This document shows positions 8,380-13,745 of a DNA stretch of 64,000 nucleotides, one piece after another (position 1 is the first letter of the stretch; the number at the start of each line of letters is the position of its first letter). The DNA lies in contig OZ244650.1 in assembly GCA_965218785.1 (NCBI GenBank), positions 672,001 through 736,000 on the forward strand, given 5' to 3'. The notes below the pieces were generated by a model. That model made no database searches. It saw nothing but the letters and a program-made list of their open reading frames with translations, and was not told where the DNA came from. Source of the DNA: Nitrosopumilus sp. Its GTDB lineage: Archaea; Thermoproteota; Nitrososphaeria; Nitrososphaerales; Nitrosopumilaceae. Position numbers and translations under genes: made by a program.

Positions 8380-8784
8380 CTAGACTTTTATCTGTGATAG
8401 ATGAATATGCGCAATCTTCCATGTGGGTTGTTTTACCAAGACAAATGTCGCACGTCCATTAATCGTCATATGCTCTCCGGTGTATGCCTTGTTGTCTACT
8501 AGCATTCCTTTCTGAGTTAACCCAAATGCAACAACTGCGGCATTTCCAAATATGCTGATTTTAGGATTTTTTATTTCATAAGTATAATCTGAGATACTTA
8601 TAAATCGCAATTCTTCTAATTCTATCGTTGTTTGATAGTCTTTTAGATCATATGGCGGCAAATCACTAAAACTTGAAAATTTTGGATCGTTGAGATGTAT
8701 CTCTTTTAGTGCGGATAGATCCTTTGTTATTCCAGCTTGGAACAGCGTTTCAATAATTTTTATAATTTCTGCGCTGTCTGACAA
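8380..8784 (-). CDS. NTF2-like/SnoaL-like protein
   Basis: About 134 aa ending GRATFVLVKQPTWKIAHIHLS, typical of this fold. Confidence 0.8.
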   Translation of the reverse strand: MSDSAEIIKIIETLFQAGITKDLSALKEIHLNDPKFSSFSDLPPYDLKDYQTTIELEELRFISISDYTYEIKNPKISIFGNAAVVAFGLTQKGMLVDNKAYTGEHMTINGRATFVLVKQPTWKIAHIHLSQIKV

Positions 8785-8862
8785 CTATTCATCTCAAATA
8801 CAGAAATTGGTTTAAGTCTTCTGTATGATGATGCGTAAATCACGGTCATTTTTCTGAGAATC

Positions 8863-8870
8863 TTTATTAA
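8863..8870 (+). promoter_or_regulatory. TATA box of the ilv-leu operon leader
   Basis: TTTATTAA preceded by purine-rich GAGAA (BRE-like), about 28 nt upstream of TTG 8891. Confidence 0.55.
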
Positions 8871-8899
8871 TTGTCGACTTGCCACTACATTTGATTTCA

Positions 8900-8956
8900 A
8901 TGGACACAAAATTAACTCGAATTACTAGCAAAGGCTTGCTAGTTGTACTACTGTAG
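8900..8956 (+). CDS. Putative ilv-leu leader peptide (uORF) MDTKLTRITSKGLLVVLL
   Basis: ATG 8900 (in-frame TTG at 8891) to TAG 8954-8956; last six codons TTG CTA GTT GTA CTA CTG; overlapping hairpins. Confidence 0.55.
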   Translation: MDTKLTRITSKGLLVVLL

Positions 8957-8998
8957 TGTGTACAATTTTAACACATTAAAATTATGGAGATTGAATTG

Positions 8999-10696
8999 AT
9001 GAATAAAATGGAAACTATGACTGGTGCCAAGGCCCTGATGACGGCCATGGAAAAGGAGGGTGTCAAACAAGTGTTTGGCCTGCCTGGAGGTGCAAACCTT
9101 CCGATGTATGATGAATTTGCTAGATGTAATATTAGACATATTCTGGCAAGACACGAACAATCTGCTGCCCATATGGCTGACGGTTTTGGCAGAGTCAGCA
9201 GAAAACCGGGTGTCTGCTTTGCAACATCCGGACCCGGTGCCACCAACATACTGACTGGAATTGCAACAGCACAAGCTGATTCTGCACCGATGATTGCAGT
9301 AACCGGTCAGGTGCCAGTTGCGATGATCGGAAAGGACGCATTTCAGGAAAGTGATATCATTGGAATGGCAAACCCCGTTGTAAAATATGCATACCAGCCA
9401 AGAACAGCCGCTGAAATTCCAGAAGCAGTAAAAAAAGGATTTTACATTGCAGAAACTGGCAGACCGGGACCTGTATTAATTGACATTCCAAAGGACGTTC
9501 AAACAGAAAAGGCGGAGATGAAATTTCCAGATGAATTTAGGATACAAGGTTATCATCCCTGGACTGATCCTGATATTACTGCATGTGAAAAAGCAGTTGA
9601 CATGTTACTTCATTCAGAAAAACCAATCATCCTGGCCGGAGGTGGAACTATCATCTCATCGGCATTTGCTGAATTACAATCTATTGCTGAAACCCTTATG
9701 CTTCCGGTAGTTACTACATTCAAAGGCAAGGGGGCGTTTCCTGAAACCCATCCTTTGTCCTTGGGTCCGATTGGAATGCATGGACATGCAGAGGCAAACA
9801 AAATGATGACAGAAGCTGACTGCGTCCTGGCAATAGGAACCCGTTTCTCTGATAGATCAGTTGGAACCTTTGAGACATTTGAAAAGAGACTCAAAATTAT
9901 CCACATGGATGTAGATCCCGCAGAGATTGGTAAAAACCAAACGGCCCAGGTTGCAGTAGTTGGCGATGTCAAGGCATCCCTCCGAATAATGATAAAATTA
10001 CTTTTGCAAAGGGCAGTCAAAAAAACCGAAGAGAATACCTGGATCAAACATGTTAAAGAGACCAAAGCATACTGGAAGGAGAACCTGAAACTTCATCCCG
10101 GCGAAATGGGCGCAGCTAAAATTTTACGCAAGCTCCGTGAACTGTTACCTCCAAAAGCCATTGTAACTACTGAAGTGGGACAACACCAGATGTGGGCGTC
10201 ATTATTTTATGATGTAATTCAACCCGGTACTTTTTTTAGCTCCACCGGACTTGGTACCATGGGCTGGGGATTTCCGGCATCAATTGGTGCCAAGGTGGCA
10301 CGCCCTGACGTTCCCGTAGTTGATATTGCAGGTGATGGCAGCTTTGCGATGACTGAAAACTCTCTTGCAACCTGCATACAGGAGGATATTCCGGTGATTG
10401 TATTTATCCTAAATAATTCCTCATTAGGAATGGTGGCTCAATGGCAGAGAACCTTCTATCAGAGAAGAATGATCGGAGTGGAGCAAAATCACTGCCCTGA
10501 TTATGTTAAACTGGCAGAATCCTACGGAGCTCAGGGAATCCGTGCACAGTCCATGGATGAGCTTGACAAGGCAATAAAATCGGCACTAGGCAGTGAAGTT
10601 GCCACCGTAATTGATATTCCAATTGATCCAGAAGAAGACGTATTGCCATTTGTAGCCCCGGGAACTTCGCTTGAGGATATGATCCTGCCATCATAG
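8999..10696 (+). CDS. ilvB: Acetolactate synthase large subunit
   Basis: FGLPGGANLP, RHEQ, TSGPGATN, GDGSF TPP motif; GGAG at 8986 supports ATG 8999 (alternative start 8984). Confidence 0.97.
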   Translation: MNKMETMTGAKALMTAMEKEGVKQVFGLPGGANLPMYDEFARCNIRHILARHEQSAAHMADGFGRVSRKPGVCFATSGPGATNILTGIATAQADSAPMIAVTGQVPVAMIGKDAFQESDIIGMANPVVKYAYQPRTAAEIPEAVKKGFYIAETGRPGPVLIDIPKDVQTEKAEMKFPDEFRIQGYHPWTDPDITACEKAVDMLLHSEKPIILAGGGTIISSAFAELQSIAETLMLPVVTTFKGKGAFPETHPLSLGPIGMHGHAEANKMMTEADCVLAIGTRFSDRSVGTFETFEKRLKIIHMDVDPAEIGKNQTAQVAVVGDVKASLRIMIKLLLQRAVKKTEENTWIKHVKETKAYWKENLKLHPGEMGAAKILRKLRELLPPKAIVTTEVGQHQMWASLFYDVIQPGTFFSSTGLGTMGWGFPASIGAKVARPDVPVVDIAGDGSFAMTENSLATCIQEDIPVIVFILNNSSLGMVAQWQRTFYQRRMIGVEQNHCPDYVKLAESYGAQGIRAQSMDELDKAIKSALGSEVATVIDIPIDPEEDVLPFVAPGTSLEDMILPS

Positions 10697-10704
10697 TGAT
10701 TATC

Positions 10705-11187
10705 ATGTGGGCGATTCTTTCTCTAGTAGTTGAAAACAAACCTGGAATCCTGTTTAAGGTAACGCATCTTTTCCGCTCAAGAAACTTTAACATAGACAGC
10801 ATTTCTGTAGGTGTAATGGAAAATCCAGAATACTCCAAAATGACCATAACGACTTATGGCAATGAAAAACAGGTGGCACAGATCGTAAAGCAGCTTGATA
10901 AAATGATAGACACCATAGAAGTCAAGCACCTAGATGAGCACAAAACAGTGTATAGGGAACTCTGTCTTTTTAAGATAAAACTATGTAATGCAAATGACAG
11001 CATGGAAGTAAACAAGATCGCCAATGCATACGGCGGCAAAGTACACGATGTGAAAAAAGAGTCACTTATGGTGGAACTGACTGCCACTCCTGATCAAATC
11101 CATGCATTTGAGGAATTAGTAAAGCCGTTTGGAATACTTGATGCTGCACGTACCGGTGTTGCCGCATTACAGAGAAGTGGGGCATGA
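10705..11187 (+). CDS. ilvH: Acetolactate synthase small (regulatory) subunit
   Basis: ACT domain VENKPGIL...NIDSISVG, KQLDK, ARTG. Confidence 0.95.
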   Translation: MWAILSLVVENKPGILFKVTHLFRSRNFNIDSISVGVMENPEYSKMTITTYGNEKQVAQIVKQLDKMIDTIEVKHLDEHKTVYRELCLFKIKLCNANDSMEVNKIANAYGGKVHDVKKESLMVELTATPDQIHAFEELVKPFGILDAARTGVAALQRSGA

Positions 11188-12689
11188 ACGTCAGAATATT
11201 TGATACGACATTACGTGATGGAGAGCAAACCATCGGTGTTTCGTTATCCCCGGATCAAAAATTAGCCATTGCAAAAAGACTCGACGAACTCGGAGTTGAT
11301 GCAATAGAGGCCGGTTTTCCAGTAATTTCCGAAGGTGAATTCAAGGCAGTAAAAATGATTGCCAGTGAAGGACTGTCTTGCGAAATTGCAGGACTGGCTA
11401 GAACCATCAGGAAGGACATCGATGCTGTAGTAGATGCCAGATTAAACTACGTCCACACGTTTATTGCAACTTCTGATATTCATCTAAAAGACAAGCTCCA
11501 TATGAGCAGGGATCAGGCATTGGAAAAAGCAGTTGAAGCAGTAGAGTATGGAAAATCCCGCGGACTGCAGGTGGAATTTTCTGCAGAAGATGCTACGAGG
11601 ACTGACAGGGAGTTTTTGAAAAAAGTCTTTGACAAAGTCGCCAAAGCTGGAGCTGACAGGGTCAACATTCCTGATACCGTGGGGTATTGCACCCCTGAAT
11701 ACATGGCAGAACTAACAAGGGATACAGTCAAAGTGACAAACCTTCCGGTAAGTGTCCACTGTCATAATGACTTTGGACTGGCAGTCGCCAACGCCCTATC
11801 TGGAATTCATGCAGGAGCCACGTGTGCACATGTTACAATTAATGGAATAGGCGAACGTGCAGGAAATGCATCGCTAGAAGAGTTCTCCATGGCATTAAAA
11901 TGCCTCCCATACGAGCAAAAATATGAAACTGGCATCAAATCCAAATTAATCTATGATACATCCAGATACATTTCAAAGGTTGTAGGCATCAAAGTTCAGC
12001 CAAACAAGGCAATTGTTGGCGATAACGCGTTTGGACACGAGTCTGGAATTCACACTCATGGTGTGCTAAGTAATCCGCTTACTTATGAGCCAATCAGTCC
12101 CGAACTGGTTGGAAGACGGAGGCGATTAAAGATTGGAAAGCATGCGGGAATCCACGGAATGAATGCGATGCTTGCAGACTTTGGTGTCAAACCAACTGCG
12201 GAGCAATCACAACAAATCTTAGAGAGAGTCAAGACAATAGCTGATCAAGGAAAACTGATCACTGATGTTGAATTGCTCTCTATTGCAAGCAAAGTTTTAG
12301 GCGAGGAGGGAATCAAAAGAATTGTCCAACTGACCGGGTTTTCAGTATCTACTGGAATCGGAACAATGCCTTATGCATTTGTCAAATTAAATATTGATGG
12401 AATCGAGTACGTCGGAACTGATCATGGTGTCGGTCCAGTTGACGCATCGCTTAATGCAATTCAAAAGATTACCGGAAAAATTTCAGAGATTAGAATCAAA
12501 GACTATGCCCTGGAATCAATTTCCGGCGGTTCTACTGCATCGTGCGGGGTTACAATCAGCGTAGAGGACGCACATGGCAACAGGGTCTCTGCAAAATCAG
12601 TCGGTGAAGACATTGTGACTACAAGTGTCAAGGCAGTTATTGACGGTATTAACAGAATTATGCTCAAAAAGATGCTTAAAGACAAATAG
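11184..12689 (+). CDS. leuA: 2-isopropylmalate synthase (LeuA/CimA family)
   Basis: DTTLRDGEQ, HCHND, GERAGN, HESGIH; C-terminal regulatory domain; could be citramalate synthase. Confidence 0.88.
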   Translation: MNVRIFDTTLRDGEQTIGVSLSPDQKLAIAKRLDELGVDAIEAGFPVISEGEFKAVKMIASEGLSCEIAGLARTIRKDIDAVVDARLNYVHTFIATSDIHLKDKLHMSRDQALEKAVEAVEYGKSRGLQVEFSAEDATRTDREFLKKVFDKVAKAGADRVNIPDTVGYCTPEYMAELTRDTVKVTNLPVSVHCHNDFGLAVANALSGIHAGATCAHVTINGIGERAGNASLEEFSMALKCLPYEQKYETGIKSKLIYDTSRYISKVVGIKVQPNKAIVGDNAFGHESGIHTHGVLSNPLTYEPISPELVGRRRRLKIGKHAGIHGMNAMLADFGVKPTAEQSQQILERVKTIADQGKLITDVELLSIASKVLGEEGIKRIVQLTGFSVSTGIGTMPYAFVKLNIDGIEYVGTDHGVGPVDASLNAIQKITGKISEIRIKDYALESISGGSTASCGVTISVEDAHGNRVSAKSVGEDIVTTSVKAVIDGINRIMLKKMLKDK

Positions 12690-12731: not shown

Positions 12732-13745
12732 ATGTACAAAATATCGTTAATTACCGGTGATGGAATTGGTCCGGAATTGTCTGATTCTGCAGTCTCTGTT
12801 TTAGAAACAATCCATGACAGGATGGATCTAAAGTTTGATATTACAAAACTGTCTGCCGGTGACAGGGCCCTGGCAGAAACCGGTAAGGCACTACCTGATC
12901 AAACAGTCGAGACGATCAAAAATTCCGATGCCTGTATCAAGGCACCTGTTGGAGAATCAGCAGCTGATGTCATTGTTGTGTTGCGGCGAATGCTTGACTT
13001 GTATGCCAATATACGTCCGGCAAAGTCATACCCGCACATGCCTGCACTGCGTGATGATATTGACATGGTAATAGTCCGTGAAAACACCGAGGATCTTTAT
13101 ACGGGAAAGGAATTCAGCTTGGGGGATTCTGCAGTTGCACTGCGGATAATTTCTACACGTGCTTCAAAAAGAATCGCCAAATACGCGTTTGAAACTGCCA
13201 AACAGCGCGGTTCTATGAAAAAAGTAACATGTGTTCACAAATCAAACGTAATGAGAGTGACTGACGGATTGTTTGCCAAGGCATGCACTGATGTATCTGA
13301 AGATTATCCTGACATTGCGTTTGAGGAGATGTATGTAGATGCGTGTGCGATGAACCTGATTCGTCAACCAGAACAGTTCGATGTTATAGTAACTACCAAT
13401 CTGTTTGGGGACATCTTATCTGACGAGTCCTCCCAGGTTGTCGGTGGATTGGGAATGGCCCCTGCTGCCAATATTGGCGATAACTTTGCATTGTTTGAGC
13501 CGGTTCATGGAGCTGCATTTGATATTGCCGGACAAAACATTGCGAATCCCTCGTCTTTCTTGCTTTCCATCAAAATGATGTTTGATTGGCTTGGAGCAAA
13601 ACATAATGATTCCAGGTGTCTTCAAACAGGTCAAAAGCTGGAATCGACAATATTTGATCTGGTAAAATCCGGTGTTAAAACCAAGGATATTGGCGGGAAT
13701 ATGAGCACTACAGAGTTTACCCGGGCAGTTACAGACTGCCTTTAA
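12732..13745 (+). CDS. leuB: 3-isopropylmalate dehydrogenase
   Basis: GDGIGPE, VRENTE, NLFGDILSD and FEPVHGAA motifs; operon context. Confidence 0.9.
   Translation: MYKISLITGDGIGPELSDSAVSVLETIHDRMDLKFDITKLSAGDRALAETGKALPDQTVETIKNSDACIKAPVGESAADVIVVLRRMLDLYANIRPAKSYPHMPALRDDIDMVIVRENTEDLYTGKEFSLGDSAVALRIISTRASKRIAKYAFETAKQRGSMKKVTCVHKSNVMRVTDGLFAKACTDVSEDYPDIAFEEMYVDACAMNLIRQPEQFDVIVTTNLFGDILSDESSQVVGGLGMAPAANIGDNFALFEPVHGAAFDIAGQNIANPSSFLLSIKMMFDWLGAKHNDSRCLQTGQKLESTIFDLVKSGVKTKDIGGNMSTTEFTRAVTDCL

Follow-up and report, generated by a model that had tools for sequence, protein, structure and literature searches.

An upstream open reading frame with a leucine/valine tail ahead of the archaeal ilvB operon: a conserved and probable leader peptide

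Leader-peptide attenuation, in which transcription and translation are coupled to control an operon, is a textbook mechanism regarded as bacterial. Whether archaea hold a comparable device is the question raised by a locus of Nitrosopumilus sp., located in a window of 64,000 nucleotides (nt) from contig OZ244650.1 (positions 672,001 to 736,000; the coordinates given below are positions of this window). Here, the branched-chain amino acid operon ilvB-ilvH-leuA-leuB is preceded, on the same strand, by a short upstream open reading frame (uORF; 8900..8956, plus strand) of 18 codons and a stop, encoding the peptide MDTKLTRITSKGLLVVLL. Its last six codons (TTG CTA GTT GTA CTA CTG; 8936..8953, plus strand) are all Leu or Val codons and adjoin the stop codon TAG (8954-8956), leaving a gap of 51 nt to the ilvB start codon ATG 9008 (the distance in this genome being 43–52 nt). 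A previous sequence-only reading of this DNA had proposed an attenuator-like leader at this site. The elements on which it relied, namely the TATA box at 8863, an in-frame TTG at 8891, the uORF with its six Leu/Val codons, three stems, a T-run at 8966-8969, ATG 8984, GGAG at 8986-8989 and ATG 8999, are all found at the positions that it gave. The comparative analysis presented here indicates that the uORF is probably a translated leader peptide, acting in cis as a gauge of charged Leu-, Val- and Ile-tRNA for ilvB-ilvH-leuA-leuB, and most likely the archaeal counterpart of the bacterial branched-chain leader peptides, with an anatomy different from the one first proposed.

The regions upstream of ilvB were surveyed in 129 genomes of the class, of which 81 belong to the family, 26 to further families within the order and 22 to different orders, applying everywhere the same rule: an open reading frame (ORF) starting with ATG, of 9–45 codons, and ending 15–135 nt upstream of ilvB. 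Such an ORF was scored as a leader when Leu, Val or Ile (L/V/I) occupied at least five, or more strictly at least six, of its last eight codons. Qualifying uORFs were found in 83/129 regions with the first threshold and in 67/129 with the second, compared to 22/715 and 5/715 (ilvB included), respectively, for genes of the same Nitrosopumilus genome with long non-coding upstream regions, and to 8/129 and 1/129 for the reverse complement of the 129 stretches, although these counts are descriptive and do not constitute a test, because related genomes are not independent samples. The 83 loci include the 45-codon uORF of locus L104, which is probably spurious. The leader is thus real, conserved and matched to the products of the operon that follows it, and the outcome that the sequence-only reading had itself named as speaking against it, a uORF or a Leu/Val run that is not conserved in relatives, was clearly not what the survey returned.

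Within the genus, 20 of 27 loci qualify, two carry a homologous uORF with 4/8 L/V/I codons, and five have no uORF. The uORF is present in 20 of the 25 genera of the family, the genera without it being g18 (0/5, G+C-rich), g21 (0/3), g24, g28 and g34, as well as in 13/15 for the other families of the order. For the other orders, it was found in three of seven families (f21, 5/5; f22, 5/5; f18, 1/2); none was found under the ATG-uORF rule in f23 (0/7), f24 and f25, while f26 and f13 only hold candidates starting with TTG. Named carriers with 6–7/8 include several metagenome-assembled genomes (MAGs) of Nitrosopumilus spp., Nitrosarchaeum sp. LAS73 and Candidatus (Ca.) Nitrosotalea devanaterra. 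A Ca. Nitrosotenuis MAG holds a homologous uORF that reaches 6/8 from either of two in-frame ATG codons, and the homologous uORF of one Nitrosopumilus MAG reaches just 4/8.

Beyond the class, the inspection took in 40 loci, spread over 23 further families within the phylum, and allowed GTG and TTG starts as well. Six of them reach 5/8 and two reach 6/8 (L231 and L235). The only family that looks convincing is f43, where the candidate leaders of L231 (7/8) and L232 (5/8) are each followed by a strong hairpin; the 10-codon ORF of L235, ending 137 nt upstream of ilvB, was judged not to be a leader. No L/V/I uORF was found at the seven ilvB loci from Methanosarcinales and Methanobacteriota. Four of these loci (L168, L169, L173 and L177) share a conserved block, CCATATATAACATGATTGATTATGAT, and a conserved hairpin, ACTGGAAA...CCAGT, located approximately 60–200 nt before ilvB, which may represent a different leader element. 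In other classes of the phylum, loci from several families (L244, L246, L253, L258 and L259) hold upstream of ilvB a mini-uORF of 8–11 codons with the pattern M..GG.(T/I)LQV(..)-stop, exemplified by MRDGTLQV, MSGGTLQVH, MIGGYTLQV and MMGGRILQVGY, each ending at its stop codon and sitting inside a hairpin GAGGGAT...CCCTCCAAGT. This conserved peptide motif, which is not an L/V/I run, is possibly another kind of ilvB leader.

The match between the codons and the product of the operon is also specific within the genome itself. Among its 1685 intergenic small ORFs (sORFs) starting with ATG, only nine hold at least six L/V/I codons in the last eight, the ilvB leader included, and the remaining eight precede genes that are unrelated or unknown according to Pfam, such as those encoding HsdM, a LarC-like protein, a cyclase and AbiEi. 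This match of tail and product at ilvB supports a leader peptide, and the uORF is not a chance ORF.

The distribution of these residues along the peptides is equally uneven. In the 83 loci, the L/V/I fraction is 0.78 in the last eight codons and 0.26 in the rest of the peptide, and the run adjoins the stop codon in 63 loci, with a single codon intervening in 18 others. What is kept across loci is the start codon, a median length of about 19 codons and the L/V/I-rich tail, and not the sequence of the peptide. The codons themselves vary: among 17 loci with the same type of leader as the one described here, the last two residues are Leu in 16 and 17 cases, encoded by five and four different codons, respectively. 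The tail is written with CTC, GTG and ATC in a G+C-rich family (G+C content at third codon positions, GC3, of 0.81) and with ATT, CTT and TTA in an A+T-rich one (GC3 of 0.24). Since the L/V/I class is kept while the codons change over this range of base composition, selection appears to act on the decoded class of amino acids, which is what a ribosome reads; constraint on a nucleotide motif by itself would not yield this pattern.

Three types of leader can be distinguished by their peptides. The one described here follows the pattern M(S/D)TKLT...VVLL-stop. An unrelated second type, M.P.V...LLLEVL(N/Y)-stop, occurs in the same genus, and a third, MKLGGS.SISSILLLVDLML-stop, predominates in other genera. 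The second type replaces the first in L004, L014, L020, L022 and L099, all from the same genus, and appears again in L055 (g20) and L070 (g29). It is truly leaderless and comes with its own TATA box (TTATAAAC) and its own hairpin (CCAGTAG/CTACTGG). It seems that the leader cassette is swapped or replaced separately from ilvB.

The spacing of TATA boxes gives an indication of where transcription starts. In this locus, a purine-rich stretch resembling a B recognition element (BRE) and the TATA box TTTATTAA (8863-8870) form the putative distal promoter P1 (8855..8870, plus strand), with the uORF ATG located 37 nt downstream of the TATA box. When the 83 survey loci are joined with six named records, a TATA-like hexamer begins 41–31 nt ahead of the uORF ATG in 66 of the 89 loci, with a sharp peak at −38 to −36. 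A second group at −31 to −29 corresponds to the second leader type, whose uORFs are therefore expected to be leaderless. In this genome, the distance from the start of a TATA box to the next ATG peaks at 29–31 nt, the signature of leaderless genes, and GeneMarkS-2 placed 11 of 11 Thaumarchaeota in its leaderless class (PMC6028130). Both the genomic spacing and this classification would put the uORF start at the 5′ end of the transcript that carries it, or 6–9 nt into that transcript; in the present case, transcription would start around 8891..8899 (plus strand), leaving a 5′ leader of approximately 6–9 nt that lacks a Shine-Dalgarno (SD) sequence and includes the in-frame TTG 8891.

A second promoter probably lies between the leader and ilvB. 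The palindrome AATTTTAA-N4-TTAAAATT (8964..8984, plus strand) contains in its right half (8977-8984) a TATA-like core that begins 31 nt before ATG 9008, matching the leaderless spacing. Within the genus, the surrounding element, ...ACA(T)TTAAAATTATGG, hardly varies; it is kept in relatives without the uORF and stands out in G+C-rich ones. Of the 25 family loci that lack an L/V/I uORF, 17 hold a similar motif at −36 to −27, which is seen, too, in two of the five loci of the G+C-rich genus g18. Spacing and conservation make this core the probable TATA box of P2, a proximal promoter from which ilvB would be transcribed as a leaderless mRNA. ATG 9008 is the ilvB start kept in all relatives; in three of them an in-frame TAA follows ATG 8984, which was therefore discarded as the start. 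An alternative start is available 9 nt ahead of the conserved one, where GGAG (8986-8989) precedes ATG 8999 (8986..9001, plus strand), in a position that only the long P1 transcripts could use. In genus g1, this in-frame ATG accompanies the uORF at 20 of the 21 listed loci that have one and is missing from all five loci that do not, an association suggesting that ATG 8999 serves as the translation start on long P1 transcripts. Taken over the family as a whole, the association is not significant (23/44 compared to 3/12; Fisher p = 0.11).

The two elements occur in different combinations among 88 loci of the family. Both the uORF and the P2-like TATA are present in 39 loci, with a spacer of 44–60 nt, and 30 of these have no SD; the uORF is found without a P2-like TATA in 24 loci, 17 of them with an SD and 16 with spacers of 29–38 nt; 17 loci only have the P2-like TATA; and eight have neither. 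In the 16 short-spacer loci, a uORF stop only 29–38 nt ahead of ilvB makes it close to forced that leader and ilvB share one transcript.

The RNA structures of the leader were found to differ from those initially proposed. The sequence-only reading had described a switch built of three stems overlapping in series: ACTAGCAA/TTGCTAGT (8924-8931/8936-8943), AGTTGTAC/GTACAATT (8941-8948/8960-8967, 8941..8967 on the plus strand, with one G-U pair) and AATTTTAA/TTAAAATT (8964-8971/8976-8983). The minimum-energy fold holds all three of them together, slightly trimmed, so that they are not truly exclusive, and single-sequence thermodynamics gave them no significant support. The covariation anticipated for these stems was observed for the first one, which shows compensatory changes; the pairing of the second, although present in this genome, is not conserved, and the third consists of invariant columns that are uninformative about RNA pairing. 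Since it is invariant, is kept in the absence of the uORF and lies 31 nt from ATG 9008, the third stem is better read as the TATA box of P2 or as a DNA palindrome. In the relatives, the bases that follow the stop codon pair with the region of the start codon, and not with the partner proposed in the second stem.

Two structures would then remain: an inner hairpin (8924..8943, plus strand), formed by the perfect 8-bp pairing of the first stem, whose 3′ arm is made of the first Leu-Leu-Val codons, and an outer stem (8903..8963, plus strand) that closes the whole uORF by pairing 8903-8908 (GACACA, codons 2–3) with 8957-8963 (TGTGT.C), past the stop. As RNAalifold gave almost no consensus on MAFFT alignments (four pairs in alignment A1 and none in A2), these structures were entered by hand and their pairs were counted on the alignments. 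A control with the partner slid along the alignment is the fairer comparison, because a structure derived by hand favours the observed register. In the leader type of this locus (25 sequences), 79% of cells pair, compared to 30–47% with the partner slid, and 22 cells are changed on both sides, compared to 10.9 in shuffles, a value reached in none of 500. The outer stem, only 5–6 bp long in this genome, shows changes on both sides in six of seven pairs, with 82% of cells paired, in a genus-level alignment; in the inner hairpin, whose core pairs are kept, four of eight pairs have changed on both sides. In another leader type (20 sequences), 85% of cells pair (86% for the equivalent of the inner hairpin), and one clear switch from GC to AU is found in six sequences. 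Over eight pairs of that type (columns 25–33/49–57), 12 one-sided changes stay paired, all of them as G-U, and five cells are unpaired. This retention of G-U pairs favours RNA over a DNA palindrome, and altogether the comparison supports the inner hairpin and the outer stem as conserved RNA pairings. As judged from the comparison as a whole, what is kept in the relatives is the uORF, a start near its private promoter P1, the L/V/I run next to the stop, and pairings that involve both the run and the bases following the stop.

The position of these structures relative to the stop codon is also recurrent. A hairpin of −5 kcal/mol or stronger begins between 12 nt before and 8 nt past the end of the stop codon in 47 of the 83 loci; in many lineages this is a separate hairpin, which often takes in the stop and the last Leu codon, with TTT to TTTTTT coming after it. 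In the leader type of this locus, the conserved post-stop arm begins 1–3 nt past the stop. By their positions, these structures begin within the predicted footprint of a ribosome placed on the last codons. Together with the run that adjoins the stop (63/83), this arrangement is the one expected for a stall next to the stop that masks an element 3′ of it. T-runs of at least four occur between the stop and the ilvB ribosome-binding site (RBS) in 39 of 82 loci, mostly 9–19 nt past the stop, and runs of at least five in 11 of 82. Locus L140, from another order, holds a textbook G+C hairpin and T6 directly before the SD. In the present genome, the T4 run (8966..8969, plus strand), 10–13 nt past the stop, is a candidate weak archaeal termination signal, and termination may be controlled at or near it. 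Over the 89 loci, the uORF RNA is modestly more stable than its shuffles (median z of −0.97; 14 loci below −2), with a very strong fold in one G+C-rich family (z of −4 to −6). A scan of 8780-9060 against Rfam release 15, which includes Leu_leader, Thr_leader, His_leader and Trp_leader, matched no family; its five hits were all snoRNA or miRNA models with E values of 1.8–6.1, far under the gathering scores.

How stalling would be converted into expression can be proposed as follows. P1 transcripts would start approximately 6–9 nt ahead of ATG 8900 and be translated at once. When branched-chain amino acids are plentiful, the ribosome would finish the peptide and leave, allowing the inner hairpin and the outer stem (or, in other genera, a hairpin right past the stop) to close the leader beside the short U-run, so that most P1 transcripts would end or stay unproductive before ilvB. 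This closure could act via intrinsic or FttA-dependent termination, or otherwise. When Leu or Val is scarce, the ribosome would stall on the last six codons, and the closing stem could not form because the footprint would cover the stop and the bases behind it; transcription would then continue into ilvB, and the long mRNA would be translated from GGAG and ATG 8999. In this genus, P2 (TATA 8977-8984) would provide a basal leaderless ilvB mRNA translated from ATG 9008, to which the leader would add an amino-acid-responsive share. The wider reading, according to which archaea have ribosome-read amino-acid attenuators, the nearly leaderless leader deciding, in ammonia oxidisers and throughout their class, whether P1 transcripts reach ilvB through a steric block rather than through a terminator/anti-terminator switch, with two ilvB mRNAs in this genus (a responsive one from ATG 8999 and a constitutive one from ATG 9008), is advanced tentatively, as somewhat less than an even prospect.

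Control of ilvB initiation by the stalled ribosome, which had been proposed as one of the possible outputs, did not find support. The mean unpaired probability of the ilvB RBS is 0.46 in the free leader and stays at 0.46 when a ribosome is fixed on the tail; a ribosome placed at codon 4 gives 0.43, and accessibility increases by more than 0.15 with a stalled ribosome in only seven of 83 loci, figures that come from a thermodynamic model only. A translational model based on RBS sequestration was therefore discarded.

Several observations weigh against the leader as an amino-acid gauge. To the lack of independence among the surveyed genomes is added the absence of the uORF from five of the 27 genomes of the same genus and from the whole genera g18, g21, g24, g28 and g34. 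The codons of the run are not rare, CTG and CTA representing 24% and 14% of Leu codons, and the run shows no rare-codon bias. The RNA structures of this genome are weak: the leader (8893-9012) folds at −18.7 kcal/mol with a z of −0.74, a value equalled or improved by 38 of 200 shuffles, and the z values of the uORF alone and of the post-stop stretch are −0.1 and +0.1, respectively. A G+C-rich hairpin leading into a long U-run is missing here, where only the outer stem of 5–6 bp and T4 are seen; the sequence-only reading had already noted the lack of a classic hairpin-plus-poly-U terminator. Across loci, T-runs are barely longer than in shuffles (3.4 compared to 3.0). Archaeal RNA polymerase is not known to terminate in a hairpin-dependent manner. 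A ribosome located at the stop codon would likewise cover the post-stop arm, so that the on/off logic needs a fast release of the ribosome, which is assumed. Finally, expression of ilvB in this genus could bypass the leader through the probable P2.

This last point is the basis of an unlikely alternative, in which the uORF is an independent mini-gene or small RNA, a short P1 transcript comprising the uORF, the closing stem and the T-run always ends before P2, and ilvB is only made from P2 as a leaderless mRNA, the leader being a relic of the fused arrangement of other genera. It would account for a P2-like TATA that fits the leaderless spacing at 31 nt from ATG 9008 and is kept in uORF-less relatives, for the lack of an SD directly before the conserved ATG in 30 of the 39 loci with both uORF and P2, and for the five same-genus genomes that lost the uORF and retained P2. 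A relic would be expected to decay, yet the run, the frame and the stems are kept in the genus with synonymous and compensatory changes. The SD-led ATG 8999 accompanies the uORF (20/21 listed loci of g1, and 0/5 without uORF), and several genera with P2 keep a GGTGA 7–8 nt before the ilvB ATG that only a longer transcript could use. A smaller chance is given to the uORF as a device for delivering ribosomes by translational coupling, where they would reinitiate at ilvB and the L/V/I tail would be incidental or would tune the rate. Here stalling would cut the synthesis of IlvB during starvation, which is the wrong sign, and the conservation of the class of the last eight residues while the remaining peptide drifts is left unexplained. 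The 16 loci with 29–38 nt from stop to start and an SD do suit termination and reinitiation, unlike the distance of 43–52 nt in this genome, with a probable promoter in between.

The two other explanations are less probable again. The peptide itself might be the product, a small protein with a hydrophobic tail acting in trans, for instance on acetolactate synthase or the membrane. Annotation commonly misses small proteins, and the peptides keep a C-terminal motif, as in LLLVDLML, LLLEVLN and VVLL. However, what is conserved is the L/V/I class rather than a sequence; the tail, of just 6–8 residues and often with Asp or Glu, is not long enough to form a membrane helix; genera share no conserved N-terminal half; two unrelated types coexist in one genus; and from order to order the uORF stays immediately ahead of ilvB. 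Slightly less probable still, and the least so of those considered, is an element acting at the DNA level or as a non-coding structure, in which the inverted repeats would be operator palindromes around the promoters for a regulator (for example of the Lrp type) or a structured leader, and the reading frame a by-product. Compensatory changes suit a DNA palindrome equally well, the probable TATA of P2 is overlapped by the palindrome of stem 3, which does not vary, and in short-spacer genera the arms of the inner hairpin flank an A+T-rich, TATA-like loop. A palindrome, however, gives no reason for the constant spacing between P1 and the start codon or for a stop right after the run; the 12 one-sided changes that remain paired as G-U, against five unpaired cells, favour a sense-strand RNA; and L/V/I coding is kept across very different base compositions, with the reverse strand devoid of such ORFs beyond 8/129 and 1/129.

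The leader peptide that emerges as the probable reading can be compared with characterized systems. In enterobacteria, ivbL (ilvBN), ilvL (ilvGMEDA) and leuL (leuABCD) are leader-peptide transcription attenuators. The archaeal leader resembles them in its short uORF directly before a branched-chain operon, on the same strand and with its own start, in the cluster of codons for the product, in the pairings that involve those codons, and in a stem and a U-run before the first enzyme gene; sensing would likewise be by stalling on uncharged tRNA. Unlike them, it has an archaeal TATA/BRE promoter, a nearly leaderless uORF, a run that adjoins the stop and a probable second promoter between leader and gene. 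The mutually exclusive pairings of those attenuators (1:2, 2:3 and 3:4) were not found by folding or covariation, and inspection of folds and alignments of the leaders revealed no conserved alternative to the post-stop hairpin, that is, no anti-terminator; this genome also lacks a strong G+C hairpin with a long U-run. There is no similarity at the Rfam level either. In the tnaC leader of E. coli, a ribosome held at the end of the leader ORF masks an adjacent factor-dependent termination site, and free tryptophan is sensed via the nascent peptide, not via tRNA charging. The archaeal leader similarly has its candidate stall site on the very last codons of the uORF, adjoining the element that would be masked, and such a logic would be compatible with factor-dependent archaeal termination (FttA/aCPSF1), as put forward in the sequence-only reading; this resemblance is wholly inferred, and in contrast to tnaC, tRNA charging would be sensed and no archaeal factor site is defined.

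Two further bacterial systems combine a sensory peptide with leaderless translation. For ilvBNC from Corynebacterium glutamicum, the accessible parts of the reports describe a leader peptide made without an RBS and a model of three hairpins (PMC11857589, PMC10272879, PMC13158618). As far as those parts go, both leaders are leaderless or nearly so, are rich in Val, Ile and Leu, and are followed by hairpins, whereas the bacterial one relies on an intrinsic terminator and the archaeal one would have an inner hairpin and a stem closing the whole uORF. The polycysteine leaderless sORFs of mycobacteria (Canestrari et al., bioRxiv 10.1101/834739) offer, in the portion of the preprint available, a similar picture of a leaderless sensory first cistron, in which ribosomes stalled on the codon tract block an mRNA structure and the operon is controlled by the supply of the amino acid. 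Unlike that case, folding with a stalled ribosome left the accessibility of the ilvB RBS unchanged here (0.46 and 0.46). Full-text literature searches, with the supplementary sORF tables of ribosome profiling (Ribo-seq) studies outside their scope, returned no archaeal leader-peptide attenuator and no ilvB leader of an ammonia oxidiser, but bacterial work only. In the text available for a Ribo-seq paper on Methanosarcina (PMC11456600), uORFs are mentioned in general and the term 'attenuat' is absent, and the available part of PMC13158618 cites attenuation only for bacteria.

Control by a branched-chain amino acid supply that is gauged by the ribosome has so far been described in bacteria only. 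If the proposed function is correct, the leader would provide physiological evidence that archaeal ribosomes communicate with the transcription or termination machinery, a short natural substrate on which to test the modulation of archaeal termination (U-run, hairpin and FttA), and an example of how abundant nitrifiers, with few known regulators, tune the synthesis of amino acids. It also points to a class of unannotated mini-genes overlooked by gene callers.

With regard to the genes downstream, the identities assigned to the four members of the operon by the sequence-only reading were all borne out by Pfam. On the plus strand, ilvB (9008..10696) encodes the large subunit of acetolactate synthase (TPP_enzyme_N/M/C), ilvH (10696..11187) the small subunit (ALS_ss_C and ACT_AHAS_ss), leuA (11184..12689) a 2-isopropylmalate synthase (HMGL-like, HCS_D2 and LeuA_dimer) and leuB (12732..13745) a 3-isopropylmalate dehydrogenase (Iso_dh). 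The host genome comprises 1.99 Mb with 40.6% G+C, and the nearest named relatives of ilvB are Nitrosopumilus and Nitrosarchaeum records with 89–90% protein identity, which marks the host as an ammonia oxidiser among the Nitrosopumilaceae. Diverging from the leader, a gene encoding a SnoaL-like protein starts with TTG 8784 on the minus strand. Approximately 50 nt upstream of P1, the motif GGTTTAAGTCTTCTG (8809-8824) is kept in records from Nitrosopumilus, Nitrosarchaeum and Nitrosotalea (L150-L155), and on the minus strand it puts CTTAAACC 32 nt ahead of that TTG, a spacing that probably makes it the TATA box of a leaderless mRNA for the SnoaL-like gene.

Leaders for other pathways, which the sequence-only reading had suggested looking for ahead of his and trp genes, were searched for in the same genome by an unbiased scan of the 1685 intergenic sORFs for runs of a single residue. 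Pfam was applied to 18 downstream genes, corresponding to the top single-residue hits and to eight of the nine sORFs with an L/V/I tail (the ninth being that of ilvB), and no single-residue run was paired with a cognate gene among those checked. His runs precede genes for a chorismate synthase, a methyltransferase and a luciferase-like protein, and a Thr run precedes that of an inositol-1-phosphate synthase. Direct inspection upstream of ilvC, ilvD, the leuC-like genes, trpE and hisG did not reveal an analogous leader, so that none was found for his or trp by either route in this genome.

Outside the window, ilvC itself is preceded by a 39-codon ORF with two CxxC pairs (MEPVRACPICPNCGSKRF...CRSCDKIIKI-stop; G000:C1:773040-773160), ending 5 nt before the ilvC start, whose product would be a zinc-ribbon-like mini-protein. 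Two other intergenic ORFs outside the window (G000:C1:376352-376495 and G000:C1:1199745-1199879), located beside unrelated genes, consist of simple repeats: one is a (CA)n tract that translates into (AC)n residues, the other has eleven Leu codons in a row.

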